Assembly: GCF_050920415.1 (NCBI RefSeq)
Contig: NZ_CP169309.1
DNA length: 64,000 nt
Origin: Escherichia coli
GTDB taxonomy: Bacteria; Pseudomonadota; Gammaproteobacteria; Enterobacterales; Enterobacteriaceae
Strand: one strand, 5' to 3'
The notes beneath the pieces are model-generated. The model searched no databases, was not told the DNA's origin, and was given only the letters and a program-made list of their open reading frames with translations. Position numbers and translations under genes: made by a program. Positions 2,282-45,616 of this stretch are shown here, in pieces (positions within the stretch are counted from its first letter, which is position 1; the number at the start of each line of letters is the position of its first letter).

Positions 2282-2616
2282 AGCCTGTACTGGCAATTGT
2301 TCCGGCCTGCGCTTTGCGATCCGTCCTTCCAGAAAATCACTTGCCACCTTTTATGGGTCATTGTATCGTTGCGCCGCGTCTGCAAAATCAGGCGTCGGGA
2401 TTGGTCTCCCGGTTATAACTCGTTGACGGCATATGACATTTCTGTGTCATTTCTGTGCCGTGCGTTCGGCTGCACTTCTATGGTGGGGCCGGGTGGGGGC
2501 GTTGAAAGACGCGCCGGTTCCCAACGAGACCGGTAAGACCAACTCCGTCCGGTTCCACCACCCGTAAGATTGGTCTCTTCAGTGGTGGAAAATATATTCT
2601 CGTTGGAGGCCACATT

Positions 2617-3078
2617 ATGGCTGTTATTTCTGTTCATAAAGACGATTTACTTACCATCCCCTTCAGTGCCGCTACTGATTTCACCGATCTGGCTGCTCAC
2701 TGCGATCGCTTCGCCCAGACCCTGATCGAATGCCACAATCCTGCGCTAAAAATGGCGCTCTGTGGCAGGCTTAATACCTGCCTTGCACTGTTGCGGCCCA
2801 CGCTGAACGAGCCGATCCCGCCGCATCTGATTGACGGTTTTATTACGAATGATTTTCCCGATGTTTCACCCGGTTTTGAACCTGATGCAGAATCACTCTG
2901 CGATTACTGCCTGGCGCTGACACAGATACTGAATGGTCACTCACTGTTACCTGAAACCGAAACCACGCTGACCGGGCTGCTGTGCGAGCTGGTCTGGTAT
3001 TTTGCTGACAGTCTGAAAGCCCCGCACTGGATACGTACCGCTGACGGCGTACAGGTTATCGACGGGAGGCCAGCATGA
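2617..3078 (+). CDS. Hypothetical protein (153 aa), first gene of a two-gene operon with the Ner-like gene
   Basis: ORF with plausible RBS (GGAGG upstream of ATG); stop overlaps start of next ORF (ATGA); no recognisable motif. Confidence 0.5.
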   Translation: MAVISVHKDDLLTIPFSAATDFTDLAAHCDRFAQTLIECHNPALKMALCGRLNTCLALLRPTLNEPIPPHLIDGFITNDFPDVSPGFEPDAESLCDYCLALTQILNGHSLLPETETTLTGLLCELVWYFADSLKAPHWIRTADGVQVIDGRPA

Positions 3079-3329
3079 TGCAGCCGGACTGGCATCCCGC
3101 TGATATTATCGCGGGACTGAGAAAACGGGGGACATCGCTGGCTAAGGTGTCCCGCAGCGCGGGACTGGCGTCCGCCACGCTGGCAAACGCGTTGACCCGT
3201 TCGTGGCCGCGCGGCGAAAAACTCATTGCGGATGCGCTGGAAACATCACCGGAAATTATCTGGCCCTCCAGATATTTCGATAATCAGGGCAACCGCATTG
3301 TAAGACTTATGCGAGAGCGGCGCTCCTGA
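3075..3329 (+). CDS. Ner/Nlp (SfsB)-family HTH DNA-binding protein
   Basis: 84-aa product with DWHPADIIAGLRKRGTSLA...WPSRY, closely resembling recalled Mu Ner / E. coli Nlp(SfsB) proteins. Confidence 0.8.
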   Translation: MMQPDWHPADIIAGLRKRGTSLAKVSRSAGLASATLANALTRSWPRGEKLIADALETSPEIIWPSRYFDNQGNRIVRLMRERRS

Positions 3330-3366
3330 TGGCAGAAGCGTCAGATACAAGGTTACGGTAAAATAT

Positions 3367-3408
3367 CTCCCGGCTCTCTGCCTGCTTCTGCTGGCAGAGA
3401 GCCGGGAG
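3367..3408. terminator. Perfect 16-bp inverted repeat (ctcccggctctctgcc / ggcagagagccgggag) just after the Ner-like gene; terminator-like hairpin without a clear T-run
   Basis: Read directly from sequence. Confidence 0.5.
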
Positions 3409-4219
3409 AAGACAAGCGAAGCGCGGCAGTTTTTCAGTCACGAAGTAAGCAAACAATCTTTTAAACGCAAAAAACGTTTTTTCTTTCTGCGCCAGAAATA
3501 ACGGTGTAATCTCCCTCCTGCACTATGCCTTCGGGCACCCTTTGGCTTCATGGTCTGCAAGAAGCCCCTGATTTATCAGGACGACCAGCCCTTGCTACCG
3601 GTACGACCTCCGCAATACCGGAACGCGAAAGCGTTTGAGGCGAAGTAATTACACACCGGACAGCCCCATCGTCATCGTTTTACCGCAACGGCCTTCACTG
3701 GCTGCAAGGTTTCTCTTTGCCGGAATTTCTCCGGCCTGCTTATCCCCTGCTGATGACCAGCGCCTTTTACATGACGGGCTGCGGCCTGCATTGCCGTCAG
3801 GCTTTGCTGCCGCGTGACCGTTAATCTACCAGACTGTTAATTTTCGAATACTGCACCAGAAACGCAATGTTTACCCCTTGCACCAGACGAGGCGTCACTT
3901 TGATCGCGTCAGCGAAAAAGCAAAGTGACGCCGCACAACTCACCGCCGCAAGCCGCGCCAGTTCTGGCCTGCGCCCTGTTTCCGCCGTCTGACATGCCCT
4001 TTGGGGCCGTTGTCAGCTCAGAGTAAAGGAGAAAAAGATCGATACCGAGGGGGGCACGACGCCCCGGAGACACCCCTGCTTCGTCAGGCAGTCTGTACTG
4101 CGTACAGCCTGAAACTCCCTAAACCTCAACAAACTGCCACTCCGGCGTGAAGGTATCGTTCTGGCGCAGCCAAAAAGCACACGCCGGAGACTGTTTGTTT
4201 TTGTTGTCAGGGGAGAGTC

Positions 4220-5104
4220 ATGAGCAAATTAAGCAGTGAAATGAAGGCGCTGGCGAAGAAAGCGGGCGGCAGCTTCAAAACGGTGAATGATCGTATTCAT
4301 GCCACGAAGCGGTTCAGCCAGCATTTACGCGAACTGAATATCCAGATCCAGCGGGTGGAGCAGATCAAAGTTCGCCATATCGAATGCTACATTCAGGAGC
4401 GGCTGGAGCAGGATATTGGTTTACGCACGCTGCAAAACGAAATGGCGGCGCTGCGCTCCGTACTGAGACTGGCGGGACGCCGACAGGTGGTGGAGCATCC
4501 GCGCCTGACCAATAAGGCGCTGGGGCTGTCAGGCGCTTCGCGCAACGGCACGCGCCGCGCCATTACGCCGGAACATTATGAAAAAGTGATGGAGAGCGCC
4601 CGTGCACAGGATGCGGGGCTGGCGGCAGCGGTGGAGATTGCGCGGCTGATGGGATTACGCTCGCAGGAGGCGGTACAGAGTTCACAGTCGCTGAAAACGT
4701 GGCTGAAAGCCATTTCCCGCGGCGAAACCCGGCTGAAAGTGGTGTTTGGCACCAAAGGCGGGCGTCCACGTTACACAACGATCCTGGACGCTGGTGCAGT
4801 CAGAAAGGCGGTGGAAAACGCGTTACCGATCGCCAGACAGCGCAATGGCAGGCTGATCGACAGGCCTGACCTCAAAACAGCGCTGGAGAGCTGGCACAAA
4901 CAGGCCATTAAGGCGGGACTGAAGGGGGAATTTTCCCCGCACTCACTGCGTTATGCATGGGCACAGGACGCGATCCGTTATTATCTGGCGCAGGGATTCA
5001 GCGAAAAAGAATCCCTGGCGCTGACGGCAACGGATCTGGGCCACGGCGACGGTCGCGGCCGCTGGGTGAAACAGGTGTACGGCTACCGCTGGAAGGAGGA
5101 ATAA
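4220..5104 (+). CDS. Tyrosine-recombinase-like (phage integrase family) protein, atypical, 294 aa
   Basis: HSLRYAWAQD (HxxR-like box), GLRSQE motif and C-terminal Tyr-containing region; strong RBS (GGGGAGAG) before ATG. Confidence 0.55.
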   Translation: MSKLSSEMKALAKKAGGSFKTVNDRIHATKRFSQHLRELNIQIQRVEQIKVRHIECYIQERLEQDIGLRTLQNEMAALRSVLRLAGRRQVVEHPRLTNKALGLSGASRNGTRRAITPEHYEKVMESARAQDAGLAAAVEIARLMGLRSQEAVQSSQSLKTWLKAISRGETRLKVVFGTKGGRPRYTTILDAGAVRKAVENALPIARQRNGRLIDRPDLKTALESWHKQAIKAGLKGEFSPHSLRYAWAQDAIRYYLAQGFSEKESLALTATDLGHGDGRGRWVKQVYGYRWKEE

Positions 5105-6127
5105 CTGAATTCATGAATGGCGCAAAATAGTACGTTATTGTGTAATGACAGCAATCAGTCTGGCGCAGGGACCGGATGAAATAAAACAACCGGATACCTG
5201 CCGTTATCACTTAACAATATAGTGATAATATTGTTACTGTATGGCGAGTAAATATCAATAACCCAGACCTTCCTGCTTCATCAGTGTGTTTTTCTGGAAT
5301 ATTATAGTGATTACCCCTGTAATCACTCGAAACGTTCCCTATTGATAACAGGTGTTTTAATCGTTTTTACCGATACCACAGGACTGGGAAAATGTTAAAA
5401 TGCCAATTCACCAGAATTTCACATTAATTCTGGCGCAGGATTATATCTGAATAATTCTCTCCATGTTTTCCTGCATCCTGTGACATATATTGTATGCTCA
5501 CAGAATGTCTCATGATTTTATAAAAAATGCTGCGACAGTTTTTGACATCATTACCTGCTACATATAGATTAACAATCTTCGGTGCTTCATGTTGTTTTTT
5601 GCACTTTGTGATCATTATCAGGTGGTTAAAATACAATCTGGTGCAGACTGTCATGGCGCATTTCCAAATAAACTGGTTGCGCCAGAAAGGGAAAGGGTCA
5701 TAAAGGTTAAGGGGCAATAAGGGTAACAGCGCCTGACCGGAAAGGGCGGAAAACTAAAGGGCCAGAAACTGGCGCAGTCCTGAGTATTTTAAATCGCAGG
5801 ATGCTGGTGTAGATATCGGCTAATCCGAAATGGTGCAGGATTTTATCTCTGCGTATCTGGTGCGGTTCTTAAAGGTTGCAGGATATATTTTCATGATCAG
5901 GTTGTGGTGCAGATATTTTTGCGTATTAATTGTTTTTTCCGTGAAATTATCGCTTATTGATAGATTTCCACCTGTTTTGATTTGCATGCAAATCAAAACG
6001 GTCAGTTTCCTATTAATAAGGCGTTAATTAATAGGTTTTTACCCAAAATTATTCACTGGTGAATAATTTCGTACTATTTCCAATTAATAATAACAAACAC
6101 AATGGCAATACCTCTCAATACAAAAAA

Positions 6128-6249: not shown

Positions 6250-7461
6250 CTATATTGCCCTTACAGTCACAGATGCCTCACTGATCTTCTGCCCCCACCA
6301 ATTCATCAGTTCCACACGCTGAACCAGGTAAACTGCGCGGTTGTAGGCAACACGTGTTGGATTTTCATCAATATGTGACAAAACTGCTTCCACCGCATCC
6401 GGCATAAATCCGGCTTCATGCAGCGCCGTACTGCCCAGCGCGCGGAAACCATGTGAAACCAACTCGCCGCCGTAACCCATCCGCCATAATGCCTTGTTGA
6501 CCGTCTCACTGTGCATTGGCTGGCTGCGTTTAACCCTGCCGGGAAAGACATACAGCGAATGCTCACTTAATGGCTTAAGCTGCGCCAATACCGACATTGC
6601 CTGTGGTGACAGTGGCACCTGGTGCTCACGCTTCATCTTCATGCGTTCAGCCGGGATAGTCCAGAGCCGTTTATCCATATCAATCTCACACCACATCGTT
6701 CCTGCGGCCTCAGCAGGGCGTACCAGGGTCAGGAGTTGCCATTGCAGCAATAACCGCGTCATGGGGCTTAAACAGGTTGTGTGGACCCGCTGCATGAGTT
6801 CCGGCAGACGCTCCGGGCGAATGGTCGGCATATGCTGCTTTTTCGGCTTCACGAATGCTTCATCAATGGTTGACGCCGGGTTTGCATCCAGCAGGCCTGT
6901 ATTAATGGCGAATTTCATGACCTCATTAATTCGCTGCGTCAGCCGGTGCAACGTCTCCAGCGTGCCACGCGCCCGTACAGGCTCCAGGGCGGAAATAAGC
7001 GTGTGCGCTTTCAGTTCTGTCACTGGCATCTGCCCAATGGCCGGGAACACATCGCGCTCCAGCGATCTCCAGATATCGTCTGCATAATCTTCGGAGATTC
7101 TGGTTTTCTTCACCGCGAACCATCTCGTCGCCACATTAATAAACAGGCTCTCCACCGCCAGCCGCTCCCGTTCGGCTTCCTCCTGCTCCAGTTTCTTTGG
7201 GTCAATACCTTTCACAAGCAGGGAAAGCTGTTCGGCGTGTAATGCGCGTGCGCTGGCAAGCGACATGGCAGGATAATGCCCGAGAGTGATGGTGGTTCGC
7301 GCAGTCGAATTTGGCCGTTTGTAACGAAAACGCCAGATCTTTTTACCGCTGGTTCTGACAAACAGGGTCAGCCCCTGCCCGTCAAACAGTTCGTAATCTT
7401 TATCAGAGGGTTTTGCTTTCTGGACTTCGCAAGCTGATAACGGACGGGTAAGAACAGCCAT
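6250..7461 (-). CDS. P4-family site-specific tyrosine integrase
   Basis: 403-aa product with N-terminal DKDYELFDGQGLTLFVRTSGKKIWRFRYK (P4-int signature) and C-terminal catalytic region (HGFRALGST...AYNRA.Y); located immediately downstream of a tRNA operon. Confidence 0.85.
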   Translation of the reverse strand: MAVLTRPLSACEVQKAKPSDKDYELFDGQGLTLFVRTSGKKIWRFRYKRPNSTARTTITLGHYPAMSLASARALHAEQLSLLVKGIDPKKLEQEEAERERLAVESLFINVATRWFAVKKTRISEDYADDIWRSLERDVFPAIGQMPVTELKAHTLISALEPVRARGTLETLHRLTQRINEVMKFAINTGLLDANPASTIDEAFVKPKKQHMPTIRPERLPELMQRVHTTCLSPMTRLLLQWQLLTLVRPAEAAGTMWCEIDMDKRLWTIPAERMKMKREHQVPLSPQAMSVLAQLKPLSEHSLYVFPGRVKRSQPMHSETVNKALWRMGYGGELVSHGFRALGSTALHEAGFMPDAVEAVLSHIDENPTRVAYNRAVYLVQRVELMNWWGQKISEASVTVRAI

Positions 7462-7726: not shown

Positions 7727-7802
7727 TGGTGGGTCGTGCAGGATTCGAACCTGCGACCAATTGATTAAAAGTCAACTGCTCTACCAACTGAGCTAACGAC
7801 CC
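7727..7802 (-). tRNA. lysV: tRNA-Lys (UUU)
   Basis: 76-nt exact match to recalled E. coli tRNA-Lys sequence (reverse complement), ends CCA. Confidence 0.95.
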
Positions 7803-44452: not shown

Positions 44453-45616
44453 GTGGAACAGATTAATTCAAATAAAAAACATTCTGACAGAAGAAAATAT
44501 TTTGCTTTATTAGCAGTGGTTTTATTTATTGCGTTTTCAGGAGCCTATGCCTATTGGTCACTGGAATTAGAAGACATGATTAGTACAGATGACGCCTATG
44601 TTACGGGGAATGCTGATCCAATTTCTGCACAAGTCTCAGGCAGTGTCACTGTCGTTAATCATAAAGATACGAACTTTGTTCGACAGGGTGACATTTTAGT
44701 TTCACTGGATAAAACTGATGCTACGATTGCACTCAATAAAGCTAAAAATAATCTGGCAAATATTGTGCGACAAACGAATAAACTATACTTACAGGATAAA
44801 CAATACAGTGCCGAAGTCGCTTCAGCACGTATCCAGTATCAACAATCTTTAGAAGATTATAATCGTCGTGTGCCGCTAGCAAAGCAGGGGGTTATTTCAA
44901 AAGAAACGCTGGAGCACACCAAAGATACGTTAATAAGTAGCAAAGCGGCATTGAATGCAGCTATTCAGGCTTATAAAGCGAACAAAGCCTTAGTAATGAA
45001 CACACCATTAAATCGCCAGCCACAAGTTGTTGAAGCTGCGGATGCAACCAAAGAAGCCTGGTTAGCGCTTAAGCGTACGGATATTAAGAGTCCGGTTACT
45101 GGTTATATTGCCCAGCGAAGTGTGCAGGTTGGCGAAACAGTGAGTCCTGGACAATCGTTAATGGCTGTCGTACCGGCACGTCAAATGTGGGTTAATGCCA
45201 ACTTTAAAGAAACACAACTCACGGATGTACGGATTGGTCAATCGGTTAATATAATCAGCGATCTTTATGGTGAAAATGTTGTGTTTCATGGTCGGGTGAC
45301 AGGGATCAATATGGGAACCGGCAATGCGTTCTCCTTATTACCTGCACAAAATGCGACAGGGAACTGGATCAAAATCGTTCAGCGTGTACCGGTTGAGGTG
45401 TCTCTGGATCCAAAAGAACTCATGGAACATCCCTTGCGCATTGGTTTATCGATGACTGCAACCATTGATACCAGGAACGAAGACATTGCCGATATGCCTG
45501 ATCTGGCTTCATCCGTGACGTCAATGCCTGCTTACACCAGTAAGGCCTTAGTTATCGATACCAGTCCGATAGAAAAAGAGATTAACAACATTATTTCTCA
45601 TAATGGACAACTTTAA
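44453..45616 (+). CDS. emrK: Multidrug efflux membrane fusion protein EmrK
   Basis: 387 aa; HlyD-family periplasmic adaptor. Confidence 0.9.
   Translation: MEQINSNKKHSDRRKYFALLAVVLFIAFSGAYAYWSLELEDMISTDDAYVTGNADPISAQVSGSVTVVNHKDTNFVRQGDILVSLDKTDATIALNKAKNNLANIVRQTNKLYLQDKQYSAEVASARIQYQQSLEDYNRRVPLAKQGVISKETLEHTKDTLISSKAALNAAIQAYKANKALVMNTPLNRQPQVVEAADATKEAWLALKRTDIKSPVTGYIAQRSVQVGETVSPGQSLMAVVPARQMWVNANFKETQLTDVRIGQSVNIISDLYGENVVFHGRVTGINMGTGNAFSLLPAQNATGNWIKIVQRVPVEVSLDPKELMEHPLRIGLSMTATIDTRNEDIADMPDLASSVTSMPAYTSKALVIDTSPIEKEINNIISHNGQL

Follow-up and report, generated by a model that had tools for sequence, protein, structure and literature searches.

Positions 3409 to 5104 of a 64,000-nucleotide stretch of Escherichia coli DNA (the window) hold a gene for a 294-residue protein that resembles tyrosine recombinases and, ahead of it on the same strand, a conserved non-coding leader whose last part is the structured RNA element EFASI. 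The window matched the chromosome of E. coli MFDS1022581 at 100%. Both the gene and the leader lie in an island of ~16 kb at a tRNA-Lys gene. EFASI turned out to accompany relaxase-like genes of this family in every related locus that we aligned.

The gene (4220–5104, plus strand) encodes RefSeq protein WP_000041050.1, annotated as an 'integrase domain-containing protein'. A preliminary description had picked out this open reading frame (ORF) as tyrosine-recombinase-like, and both Pfam and the predicted fold agree. The protein matched Integrase_1 (PF12835; 199.5 bits, E 3.4e-59, Pfam cut-off 23) and Phage_int_SAM_2 (PF12834; 137.4 bits, E 2.5e-40, Pfam cut-off 22). The general Phage_integrase family (PF00589) gave a sub-threshold 23.7 bits, and the XerC and XerD equivalog models scored ~30–31 bits against cut-offs of ~330–335. 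By sequence, the only relatives of solved structure were marginal matches to lambda Int. An AlphaFold model (AF2) built on 27 homologues reached a pLDDT of 87.7, and Foldseek aligned this model with XerA, IntI4, lambda Int, Tn1549 Int, XerH and Cre at a probability of 1.00 over ~300 columns. Because of these matches to known recombinases, we conclude that the protein has the complete two-domain fold of a tyrosine recombinase, with a core-binding and a catalytic domain. The gene is under strong purifying selection, with a dN/dS of 0.05–0.16 against its E. coli and E. albertii orthologues.

The active-site residues R147, K179, H241, R244 and H275 are invariant among 27 sequences, and Y287 is conserved and lies at the end of the last helix of the model. 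The same description had called the ORF unusually short and the spacing of its catalytic motifs non-canonical. A length of 294 residues is in fact normal for a simple Xer-type recombinase, and the remark on spacing holds for one interval, the 12 residues from H275 to Y287 where ~9 are usual, whereas the catalytic residues themselves are all present. The C-terminus is also odd in that it continues for just 7 residues after Y287. Tyrosine recombinases normally carry a C-terminal segment beyond the nucleophile, and the window protein has no such segment. It is like simple recombinases of the XerC/XerD type in size, two-domain fold and active-site residues, but differs from them in scoring far under the family cut-offs (31 versus 335 bits), in its truncation after the tyrosine, in having no dif-like site and in its genomic role. 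Position 282 (codon 5063–5065), five residues before Y287, is a tryptophan in the clade of the window protein (E. coli and E. albertii orthologues) and a near-invariant tyrosine in other relatives. The change, in the last helix, may be neutral or may mark a clade whose enzyme works differently.

PF12835 is the signature that Burrus and colleagues used for the atypical MpsA-like relaxases ('INT_DTR_like', PMC10484663). MpsA of Salmonella Genomic Island 1 (SGI1) is itself tyrosine-recombinase-like, is essential for mobilization and acts on an origin of transfer (oriT) upstream of mpsA (Kiss 2019, PMC6414798). A published SGI1 knockout primer found no SGI1 in the E. coli genome collection that was searched; three SGI1-like loci from metagenomes, found with a 22-nt piece of the published oriT, served for comparison. 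From one of these (L005) we extracted a 321-aa MpsA and a 99-aa MpsB. This MpsA scored 42.7 bits on PF12835, and in its BLASTP alignment to the window protein (153 aa, 27% identity, E 2e-6) the catalytic Arg, Lys, His-x-x-Arg and LGH are in register. It stops two residues past its tyrosine, and the window protein also ends shortly after its own.

MpsA-like enzymes have recently been grouped as MOB_M relaxases, which are reported to be the commonest chromosomal relaxases and to be routinely mis-annotated as integrases. In that work, 96% of them adjoin an integrase, either in integrative conjugative elements (ICEs) with a mating-pore (MPF) system of the MPF_G type or in relaxase-only integrative mobilizable elements (IMEs), and the first intergenic region upstream of the gene, also found in relaxase-less islands, is taken as the oriT region ('oriT_rM'; bioRxiv 10.64898/2026.01.13.699239). 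The window locus has the same traits: a chromosomal, tyrosine-recombinase-like gene annotated as an integrase, adjoining a real integrase in a relaxase-only island, with an upstream intergenic region that is an oriT candidate. The preprint makes no mention of EFASI, of STAXI or of a role for RNA, and a full-text literature search for EFASI gave two papers only, the preprint not among them. The oriTs of pIGRK (MobK), pCW3 (TcpM) and SGI1 (MpsA) are likewise all intergenic and upstream of the enzyme gene, and nicking by MobK depends on its catalytic tyrosine; the three characterized enzymes have no significant sequence similarity among themselves. MobK and TcpM thus represent the same type of relaxase with the same placement of oriT, but they are plasmid-borne, and MobK is said to be without the core-binding domain that the window protein has. 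Because of the homology to MpsA and the genomic context, we read the window protein as the relaxase of the island and the neighbouring P4-type enzyme as its integrase. Judged from its sequence, the window protein is most likely a DNA-nicking relaxase of the MpsA (MOB_M) family.

EFASI structure directly upstream of the gene

The EFASI family of Rfam (RF02957) matched positions 4034–4162 with 99.2 bits against a gathering threshold of 51.2, covering model positions 1–133 of 133. Together with an additional helix, which we call Px, the structured RNA spans 4034–4189 on the plus strand and ends ~30 nt upstream of the start codon. The name stands for 'Enterobacteriaceae, Frequently Around STAXI and Integrases', a motif of unknown function according to the Rfam text quoted in PMC12370729; in the same study, EFASI was amplified by reverse-transcription PCR (RT-PCR) from vesicle RNA of a Shiga toxin-producing E. 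coli (STEC) strain.

Comparisons drew on 86 related loci, on 80 from species-representative genomes (53–94% protein identity) for context and on 77 with gene coordinates. The 270 nt upstream of the gene were aligned for 75 non-identical loci, and Rfam was sampled in 11. All 75, which range from E. albertii to Yersinia pestis, Pectobacterium, Photorhabdus and Xenorhabdus, have an EFASI-like structure ahead of the homologous gene. It was always on the strand of the gene and 30–110 nt ahead of it (75/75, over the same range of protein identity), and Rfam called EFASI in 11 of the 11 sampled loci with 91–119 bits. Within E. coli, a 166-nt piece carrying the element is 95–99% identical in 327 genomes.

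The alignment supports the structure itself. In total, 96% of the cells were paired and 18 pairs showed compensatory changes (267 cells). None of 500 shuffles reached the observed values, and slid controls were only 29–50% paired. Helix Px, which is absent from the Rfam model, pairs 4140–4149 (CTCCGGCGTG) with 4180–4189 (CACGCCGGAG); it was 99.4% paired, with four covarying positions. Helix P1 of the known model pairs 4040–4046 with 4152–4158 and also has four covarying pairs. Because the 5' strand of Px sits within P1 and both helices covary, EFASI is either a pseudoknot or a pair of mutually exclusive, conserved conformers. The alignment held 113 G.U cells versus 10 A.C cells, and the folding z-score was –3.15 for the plus strand versus –0.79 for the minus strand. 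This excess of G.U, and the fact that only the plus strand folds better than its shuffles, assign the fold to the sense strand.

The window element covers the full model with a high score (99 bits) and lies ahead of an 'integrase' gene, in agreement with the Rfam description of the family. The locus differs from that description in several respects. The structure extends past the model by the covarying pseudoknot helix, the accompanying 'integrases' are relaxase-like proteins of the MpsA family, and the strict linkage in cis argues against the free-standing trans-acting small RNA (sRNA) that had been suggested. Furthermore, STAXI is missing upstream: RF01728 had no match in the window at its gathering threshold and none in 3300–4260 at E ≤ 10. 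In other clades the slot 500–900 nt upstream of the gene is filled by STAXI (5 of 11 loci) or by a radC motif (L033), while in the window it is held by two elements described below, element U and hairpin H. Across MPF_G ICEs, radC and STAXI together account for 80% of RNA genes (Cury et al.).

Two further ideas about the element were rejected. The invariant loop ACCTCAAC might have been an RNA guide, but the window has a single copy of its complement GTTGAGGT, at 45392, which is remote from the module. A conserved AAGGAG (4026–4031, plus strand), ~10 nt before P1 in the 75-locus alignment, might have served a small ORF inside EFASI; the start codon of that frame varies (ATG, TTG or CTG) and is absent in the window, and the frame lengths differ. 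Ahead of AAGGAG, and ~20 nt before EFASI, lies a small plus-strand hairpin, CTGACA...TGTCAG (3989–4016), whose 5' arm TCTGACAC and T-run are kept across the same alignment and which in Xenorhabdus has a terminator-like hairpin as its counterpart.

The remainder of the leader and the TCTGGYGCAG motif

The whole conserved non-coding leader runs from 3483 to 4219 (~740 nt, plus strand) and is a putative primary transcript of ~700 nt as well as a candidate oriT region. Between genera, conservation sets in sharply at 3483 with TTTCTGCGCCAGAAATAACGGTGTAATCT; the block TTTCTGCGCCAG...GGTGTAATCT is kept in 9 loci, and the sequence upstream of it diverges. We propose 3484–3512 on the plus strand as the putative leader promoter, with a weak –35 (TTTCTG), a conserved –10-like TAATCT or TAGTCT at 3507–3512, and a spacer that overlaps a copy of the repeated motif at 3487–3496.

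The preliminary description had noted that 3409–4219 holds no convincing ORF despite a high GC content, and had proposed a long structured leader, a recombination site for the enzyme or the remains of an inactivated gene. Its remark on coding potential was borne out, as all ORFs there are of 60 aa or less and none of the ten matched Pfam at E ≤ 1. The GC content of 0.51–0.58 is ordinary for this genome and looks high only beside the downstream spacer with its 36–38% GC. The structured leader is real: its 3' part is a bona fide EFASI, and the rest has conserved hairpins with compensatory changes. Indeed, a multi-hairpin consensus fold of nine leader sequences had compensatory changes in 27 of its 132 pairs. 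Near the predicted 5' end of the leader RNA is a hairpin with a UUCG tetraloop (3526–3537, plus strand), in which TGCC-TTCG-GGCA is swapped for TTGTC-GTA-GACAA or CTGTC-GTT-GACAG in three other loci (L011, L019 and L026). A second hairpin, ACGC GAAA GCGT with a GAAA tetraloop (3623–3634, plus strand; columns 150–154/165–169 of the consensus fold), has its closing pairs changed from AU to GC in 4 of the 9 sequences and from AU to UA in 2 of the 9. In 3409–4033, searches for STAXI or any other Rfam family returned noise only (miRNA and lncRNA models on the 3366–3409 hairpin). RNAalifold also paired a conserved pyrimidine tract, CCUCCU (3514–3519), which directly follows the putative –10 and would thus open the leader RNA, with the Shine-Dalgarno sequence AGGGGA (4209–4214), 700 nt away. 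This might, on the strength of the predicted fold, be a long-range translational lock, a weak suggestion given that any purine-rich Shine-Dalgarno sequence would pair.

Two parts of the leader stand out as potential DNA sites. Element U (3758–3860, plus strand) is a near-invariant, GC-rich block of ~65 nt with an irregular hairpin (3772–3823) and ends in the motif copy CTGCACCAGA. It has a folding z-score of –4.6, is kept in ~30 of the 86 loci and, by blastn, is more widespread than the EFASI sequence. Hairpin H (3891–3932, plus strand) is the 12-bp inverted repeat 3891–3902/3921–3932 (I19) that had caught the eye in the preliminary description. The repeat is exact, and the hairpin is conserved: all 27 aligned relatives have it, five of them (L008, L009, L012, L032 and L056) with compensatory changes. 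Its z-score is –5.1, and CTGCRCCAGA copies of the motif flank it. Element U lies 360–460 nt upstream of the gene, and the oriT of the SGI1-like locus lies 300–425 nt upstream of its own. By this analogy, element U is the best positional candidate for an oriT. The hairpins and repeats of the leader stand at the distance expected for an oriT, in a sequence unlike that of SGI1.

The motif itself, which the preliminary description had seen as ctggcgcag recurring downstream of the gene, is locally enriched and conserved in relatives. With up to one mismatch, TCTGGCGCAG occurs 19 times in the window versus 4.6 expected, a number reached in 0 of 100 shuffles. Nine of the 19 copies fall in 3487–5777, and five of the six exact copies in 3487–5438. 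Across the 77 related loci with gene coordinates, motif density is 8.6-fold higher near the gene (–1 to +2.2 kb from its start) than at greater distances. Upstream, the copies have the plus-strand sequence CTGCRCCAGA (3487, 3851 and 3878); those at 4160, 4984, 5159, 5429, 5637 and 5768, which lie after EFASI, in the gene, in the spacer and beyond, have the opposite orientation, and the copy at 5677 is inverted. The pair at 3851/3878 is mirrored, with the same spacing, by a pair at 5831/5858 (I1, a 36-nt mirrored pair). The copy inside the gene (TCTGGCGCAG, 4984–4993, plus strand) covers the codons for Y-L-A-Q-G. Of 25 orthologues with YLAQG, 22 have exactly the same 14 nt here, TAT CTG GCG CAG GG, while the adjacent codons show free synonymous variation. 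Because this copy is frozen at synonymous sites, we conclude that the motif is selected at the nucleotide level. In distant clades, helix Px has the 9-mer as one strand and its complement as the other, and the motif pair there is no more than this helix. The reader of the motif could be the relaxase-like protein, the HTH_35 protein encoded nearby, or a long-range RNA pairing.

Downstream of the gene, an AT-rich spacer (5105–5630, ~36–38% GC) carries two exact motif copies (5159–5168 and 5429–5438). It is specific to this lineage and was found only in L001–L003 among the 86 loci. The best sigma-70-like site of the region (5542–5570, TTGACA-17-TAGATT, 10/12) lies at its right end. Next comes element D (5630–5866, plus strand), a conserved non-coding block after the gene, in which indel lengths are not multiples of three. 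In its core (5674–5778), inverted motif copies (5677–5686 on the minus strand and 5768–5777 on the plus strand) enclose about seven AAGGG repeats, and further plus-strand copies surround the core. Element D is kept in ~25 loci, usually 0–400 nt past the stop codon; in the window ~530 nt of AT-rich DNA intervene.

The island and its relatives

A P4-type integrase gene (6250–7461, minus strand; Pfam Arm-DNA-bind_3, Phage_int_M and Phage_integrase; NCBIfam PRK09692, 521 bits) is convergent with the relaxase-like gene, 1.1 kb away across the AT-rich spacer. Beyond it, ARAGORN identified the tRNA-Lys gene lysV (7727–7802, minus strand), the attachment site of the island; three tRNA-Val genes and gltX come after it. 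The last 19 nt at the 3' end of this tRNA recur 16.1 kb away beside xapR, outside the window. This 19-bp direct repeat, TTGGTGGGTCGTGCAGGAT, stands at 1502788 and 1518922 and delimits an island of ~16.1 kb (L087; record NZ_CP169399.1, 1502788–1518941). The att-like repeat is duplicated at the far end, where the annotation reads 'RtT sRNA'. As cargo the island carries an orphan type VI secretion set (PAAR, four hypothetical proteins, DUF4123, VgrG/effector, TssF and TssG), with the rest of the apparatus absent. No MPF genes were found in its 16 kb. With no genes for a transfer pore, flanking 19-bp repeats, and an integrase at a tRNA gene, the island therefore looks like an integrative mobilizable element.

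On the other side of the leader lies a cluster of RNA features, namely a c4-a1b1 target (2363–2415), isrK (2376–2454) and a C4 antisense RNA (2476–2565), followed by an ORF of 153 aa that has no annotation (2617–3078) and, overlapping it, a Ner/SfsB-like HTH_35 gene (3075–3329). The interval 2363–3329 resembles the immI unit of phage P1. C4 RNA was present near the relaxase-like gene, upstream or downstream, in 7 of the 11 sampled loci. This suggests that the C4/HTH_35 unit moves together with the mobilization module, perhaps to regulate it. A hairpin with a 20-bp stem (3366–3409; inverted repeat I5, 95% complementary) stands at the end of the c4/orf153/HTH_35 operon, at the left edge of the leader region, and folds at –42.3 kcal/mol with a z-score of –9.4. 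It has a T-run on its minus-strand side only; as an intrinsic terminator it would stop leftward transcription from the leader, not the upstream operon.

In most of the 80 surveyed loci, a P4-type integrase and a tRNA gene (Phe, Asn, Leu, Pro, Met, Arg or Gly) lie within 1–6 kb, and an HTH_35 gene is nearby. The block of HTH gene, leader and relaxase-like gene stands in either orientation relative to the integrase and the tRNA, depending on the island. Some genomes hold several modules: at least six in Citrobacter youngae ATCC 29220 (L010, L036, L039, L040, L047 and L060 among the loci), three in Brenneria sp. hezel4-2-4 and several in Xenorhabdus and Photorhabdus species. The copy in Kluyvera georgiana (L031) has an internal stop. 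Within E. coli, homologous leaders occur, unannotated, in 825 of 5426 complete genomes, and matches to the whole leader-plus-gene query were mostly 80–90% identical.

Plasmids rarely carry the relaxase-like gene family (65 of 72,556), and 49 of those that do are typed 'non-mobilizable'. MOB-suite found no relaxase on the family-bearing plasmids, even on a Pantoea plasmid typed MPF_G. Pantoea piersonii plasmid pGABEKP28_3 (L089, 5151–7090), typed MPF_G yet 'non-mobilizable', has in this order STAXI, EFASI, the PF12835 gene, another STAXI copy, and genes for an ArdC-like metallopeptidase and a methylase. The relaxase of MPF_G plasmids like this one is probably the overlooked PF12835 protein. STAXI thus stands on both sides of the plasmid gene, as elements U and D do in the window, with element D in the slot of the second STAXI copy. 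Caballeronia zhejiangensis plasmid p4 (L088, 8158 bp) has a PF12835 gene plus a separate Xer-type recombinase. Upstream of its PF12835 gene lie ~850 nt of non-coding DNA in which no Rfam family was detected, and an overlapping ORF of 86 aa downstream was not MpsB-like by BLASTP. A long non-coding leader may therefore be general beyond the clade that bears EFASI.

A probable mobilization module and competing explanations

The best studied system for comparison is the mobilization region of SGI1. There, promoter P5 drives an RNA of 650–700 nt that runs through S022 and the 125-bp oriT. The 3' part of this leader RNA, between oriT and mpsA, is sgm-sRNA, which is essential for mobilization but does not work through activating mpsAB expression (Nagy 2021, PMC9299015). 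The SGI1 oriT is a string of three GC-rich hairpins. The window locus shares with SGI1 an enzyme of the same Pfam family (PF12835) that ends right after the presumed catalytic tyrosine, an integrative mobilizable island with its own separate integrase, and a leader of ~700 nt on the gene strand with GC-rich inverted repeats and an RNA element directly upstream of the gene. By position, element U and hairpin H would correspond to the SGI1 oriT, and EFASI to the core of sgm-sRNA. The window module differs in its TCTGGYGCAG repeats and element D, and its helper is likely of the MPF_G type rather than IncA/C.

We consider it probable that the gene and its leader are the mobilization module of the ~16-kb integrative mobilizable island at tRNA-Lys, made up of an MpsA-family relaxase and a leader that combines an oriT with the EFASI RNA. 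The neighbouring P4-type integrase would perform integration and excision of the island. The leader (3483–4219) would probably be transcribed from the weak promoter at ~3484–3512 into a long multi-hairpin RNA whose 3' end is the pseudoknotted EFASI, ~30 nt before the start codon. The leader DNA most likely also carries the oriT, for which element U, hairpin H and the flanking CTGCRCCAGA repeats are together the best candidate. The 294-aa relaxase would nick this oriT, and a helper conjugative element, most likely of the MPF_G type, would export the excised island. By analogy with sgm-sRNA, EFASI may act as an RNA cofactor of the relaxase or as its regulator in cis. A recombination site for the enzyme had been among the earlier proposals, and a DNA site in cis is indeed probable; because the enzyme belongs to the MpsA family of relaxases, its kind should be an oriT and not a crossover site. 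The protein is a member of a common annotated family, and the literature searched gives no defined sites for its subfamily.

Several observations weigh against this explanation. The closest experimentally tested relative, MpsA, is only ~26–27% identical to the window protein. The oriT sequences are unrelated, the window leader being without similarity to that of SGI1, and a consensus promoter scan made no call at 3484–3512. No conserved ORF like mpsB was found downstream of the window gene, although the window protein carries its own SAM-like core-binding domain, which could be why the module has none. Upstream of mpsA, the three SGI1-like loci had no Rfam match to EFASI at E ≤ 1 and no hallmarks of it by eye; the RNA parallel is therefore one of position and leader length only, and homology between EFASI and sgm-sRNA was rejected, as they have no detectable sequence or structure in common. 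If Tyr282 of the relatives, and not Y287, were the nucleophile, the window protein with its W282 would be catalytically dead. Finally, with a complete recombinase active site and a core-binding domain kept, true recombination is possible as far as the sequence can tell.

This last point leads to an alternative, that the window protein is a true site-specific recombinase (an invertase, resolvase or cassette excisase) acting on the TCTGGYGCAG repeats on either side of its own gene, with the leader as a regulated 5' untranslated region. The full R-K-H-R-H-Y set and the SAM-like domain fit such an enzyme, as do the motif arrays with opposite orientations on the two sides of the gene (including the mirrored 36-nt pair), the frozen in-gene copy and the occurrence of the HTH/leader/gene block in both orientations among islands. 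We nevertheless regard it as unlikely. No inverted pair of binding sites with a 6–8-bp crossover spacer was found, the protein stops 7 residues after Y287 without the usual segment after the tyrosine, and the motif pair of distant clades amounts to the strands of Px. The island already has a dedicated integrase, the homology is to a relaxase, and MPF_G plasmids with a PF12835 gene have no other relaxase. Quite unlikely, too, is the idea that EFASI is an independent trans-acting sRNA that lies near integrase-like genes by chance. The Rfam text (quoted in PMC12370729) favours it, and the hairpin and T-run at 3989–4016 could separate EFASI from the rest of the leader, but the same-strand linkage in cis, 30–110 nt upstream in 75 of 75 loci, speaks against it, and there is neither a conserved promoter directly before EFASI nor a conserved terminator between EFASI and the gene across clades. 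That the leader is a decayed protein-coding gene, as had been proposed at the outset, we hold to be most improbable. PGAP does call short 'hypothetical proteins' here in some genomes, and SGI1 has two dispensable ORFs, S021 and S022, in the corresponding region. The PGAP-called ORFs differ in position and strand between genomes, however, none of the ten ORFs of the window leader has a Pfam match, and alignments of relatives have 1-nt indels within the most conserved blocks, where conservation tracks helices and not codons.

A different question is in what form the leader acts. EFASI, and perhaps the whole leader, could work as folded single-stranded DNA (ssDNA), either as the structure by which the relaxase recognizes oriT or as a single-strand promoter or initiation signal. 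For STAXI, the ssDNA option had been raised by its discoverers in view of the DNA-handling genes in its neighbourhood (PMC2864571), and on the MPF_G plasmid STAXI and EFASI lie beside the relaxase-like gene and the anti-restriction and methylase genes. The region upstream of MOB_M genes is treated as an oriT and is present in relaxase-less islands (bioRxiv 10.64898/2026.01.13.699239), and the SGI1 oriT itself consists of three GC-rich hairpins. Against this, the 113 versus 10 G.U to A.C cells put the fold on the sense strand (though a fold of sense-strand DNA would be possible), the UUCG and GNRA tetraloops in the leader hairpins favour RNA, EFASI has been detected by RT-PCR, and in SGI1 the RNA and the oriT are separable neighbours. 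We therefore give the ssDNA explanation some weight while doubting it. A more specific version of the mobilization module, which we offer as a tentative possibility, is that EFASI is an RNA subunit of the relaxosome, such that the tyrosine-recombinase-like relaxases of Enterobacterales need a structured RNA encoded upstream for recognition or processing of oriT or for docking of the coupling protein. If so, the single observation of sgm-sRNA would generalize to a rule, and the slot of STAXI, radC or element U, together with the TCTGGYGCAG arrays, would hold the matching DNA or RNA partners.

PF12835/MpsA-type relaxases, the Rfam EFASI motif and tRNA-linked islands with P4-type integrases are already known. 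In the literature searched, three points appear to be new: EFASI as the invariable leader of MpsA-family relaxase-like genes across Enterobacterales, its extra pseudoknot helix, and a common upstream slot filled by STAXI, radC or element U. Until now EFASI (2017) and STAXI and radC (2010) have been orphan structured-RNA motifs, MpsA-type relaxases were recognized as abundant only in 2026, and for the MpsA system of SGI1 the need for a small RNA, itself unexplained, was demonstrated in 2021; the present locus ties these three threads together. It also points to unannotated mobilization modules on islands in 8–15% of complete E. coli genomes. The link between EFASI and the relaxase makes the function of these orphan motifs testable, and it bears on how relaxases of the tyrosine-recombinase type work.

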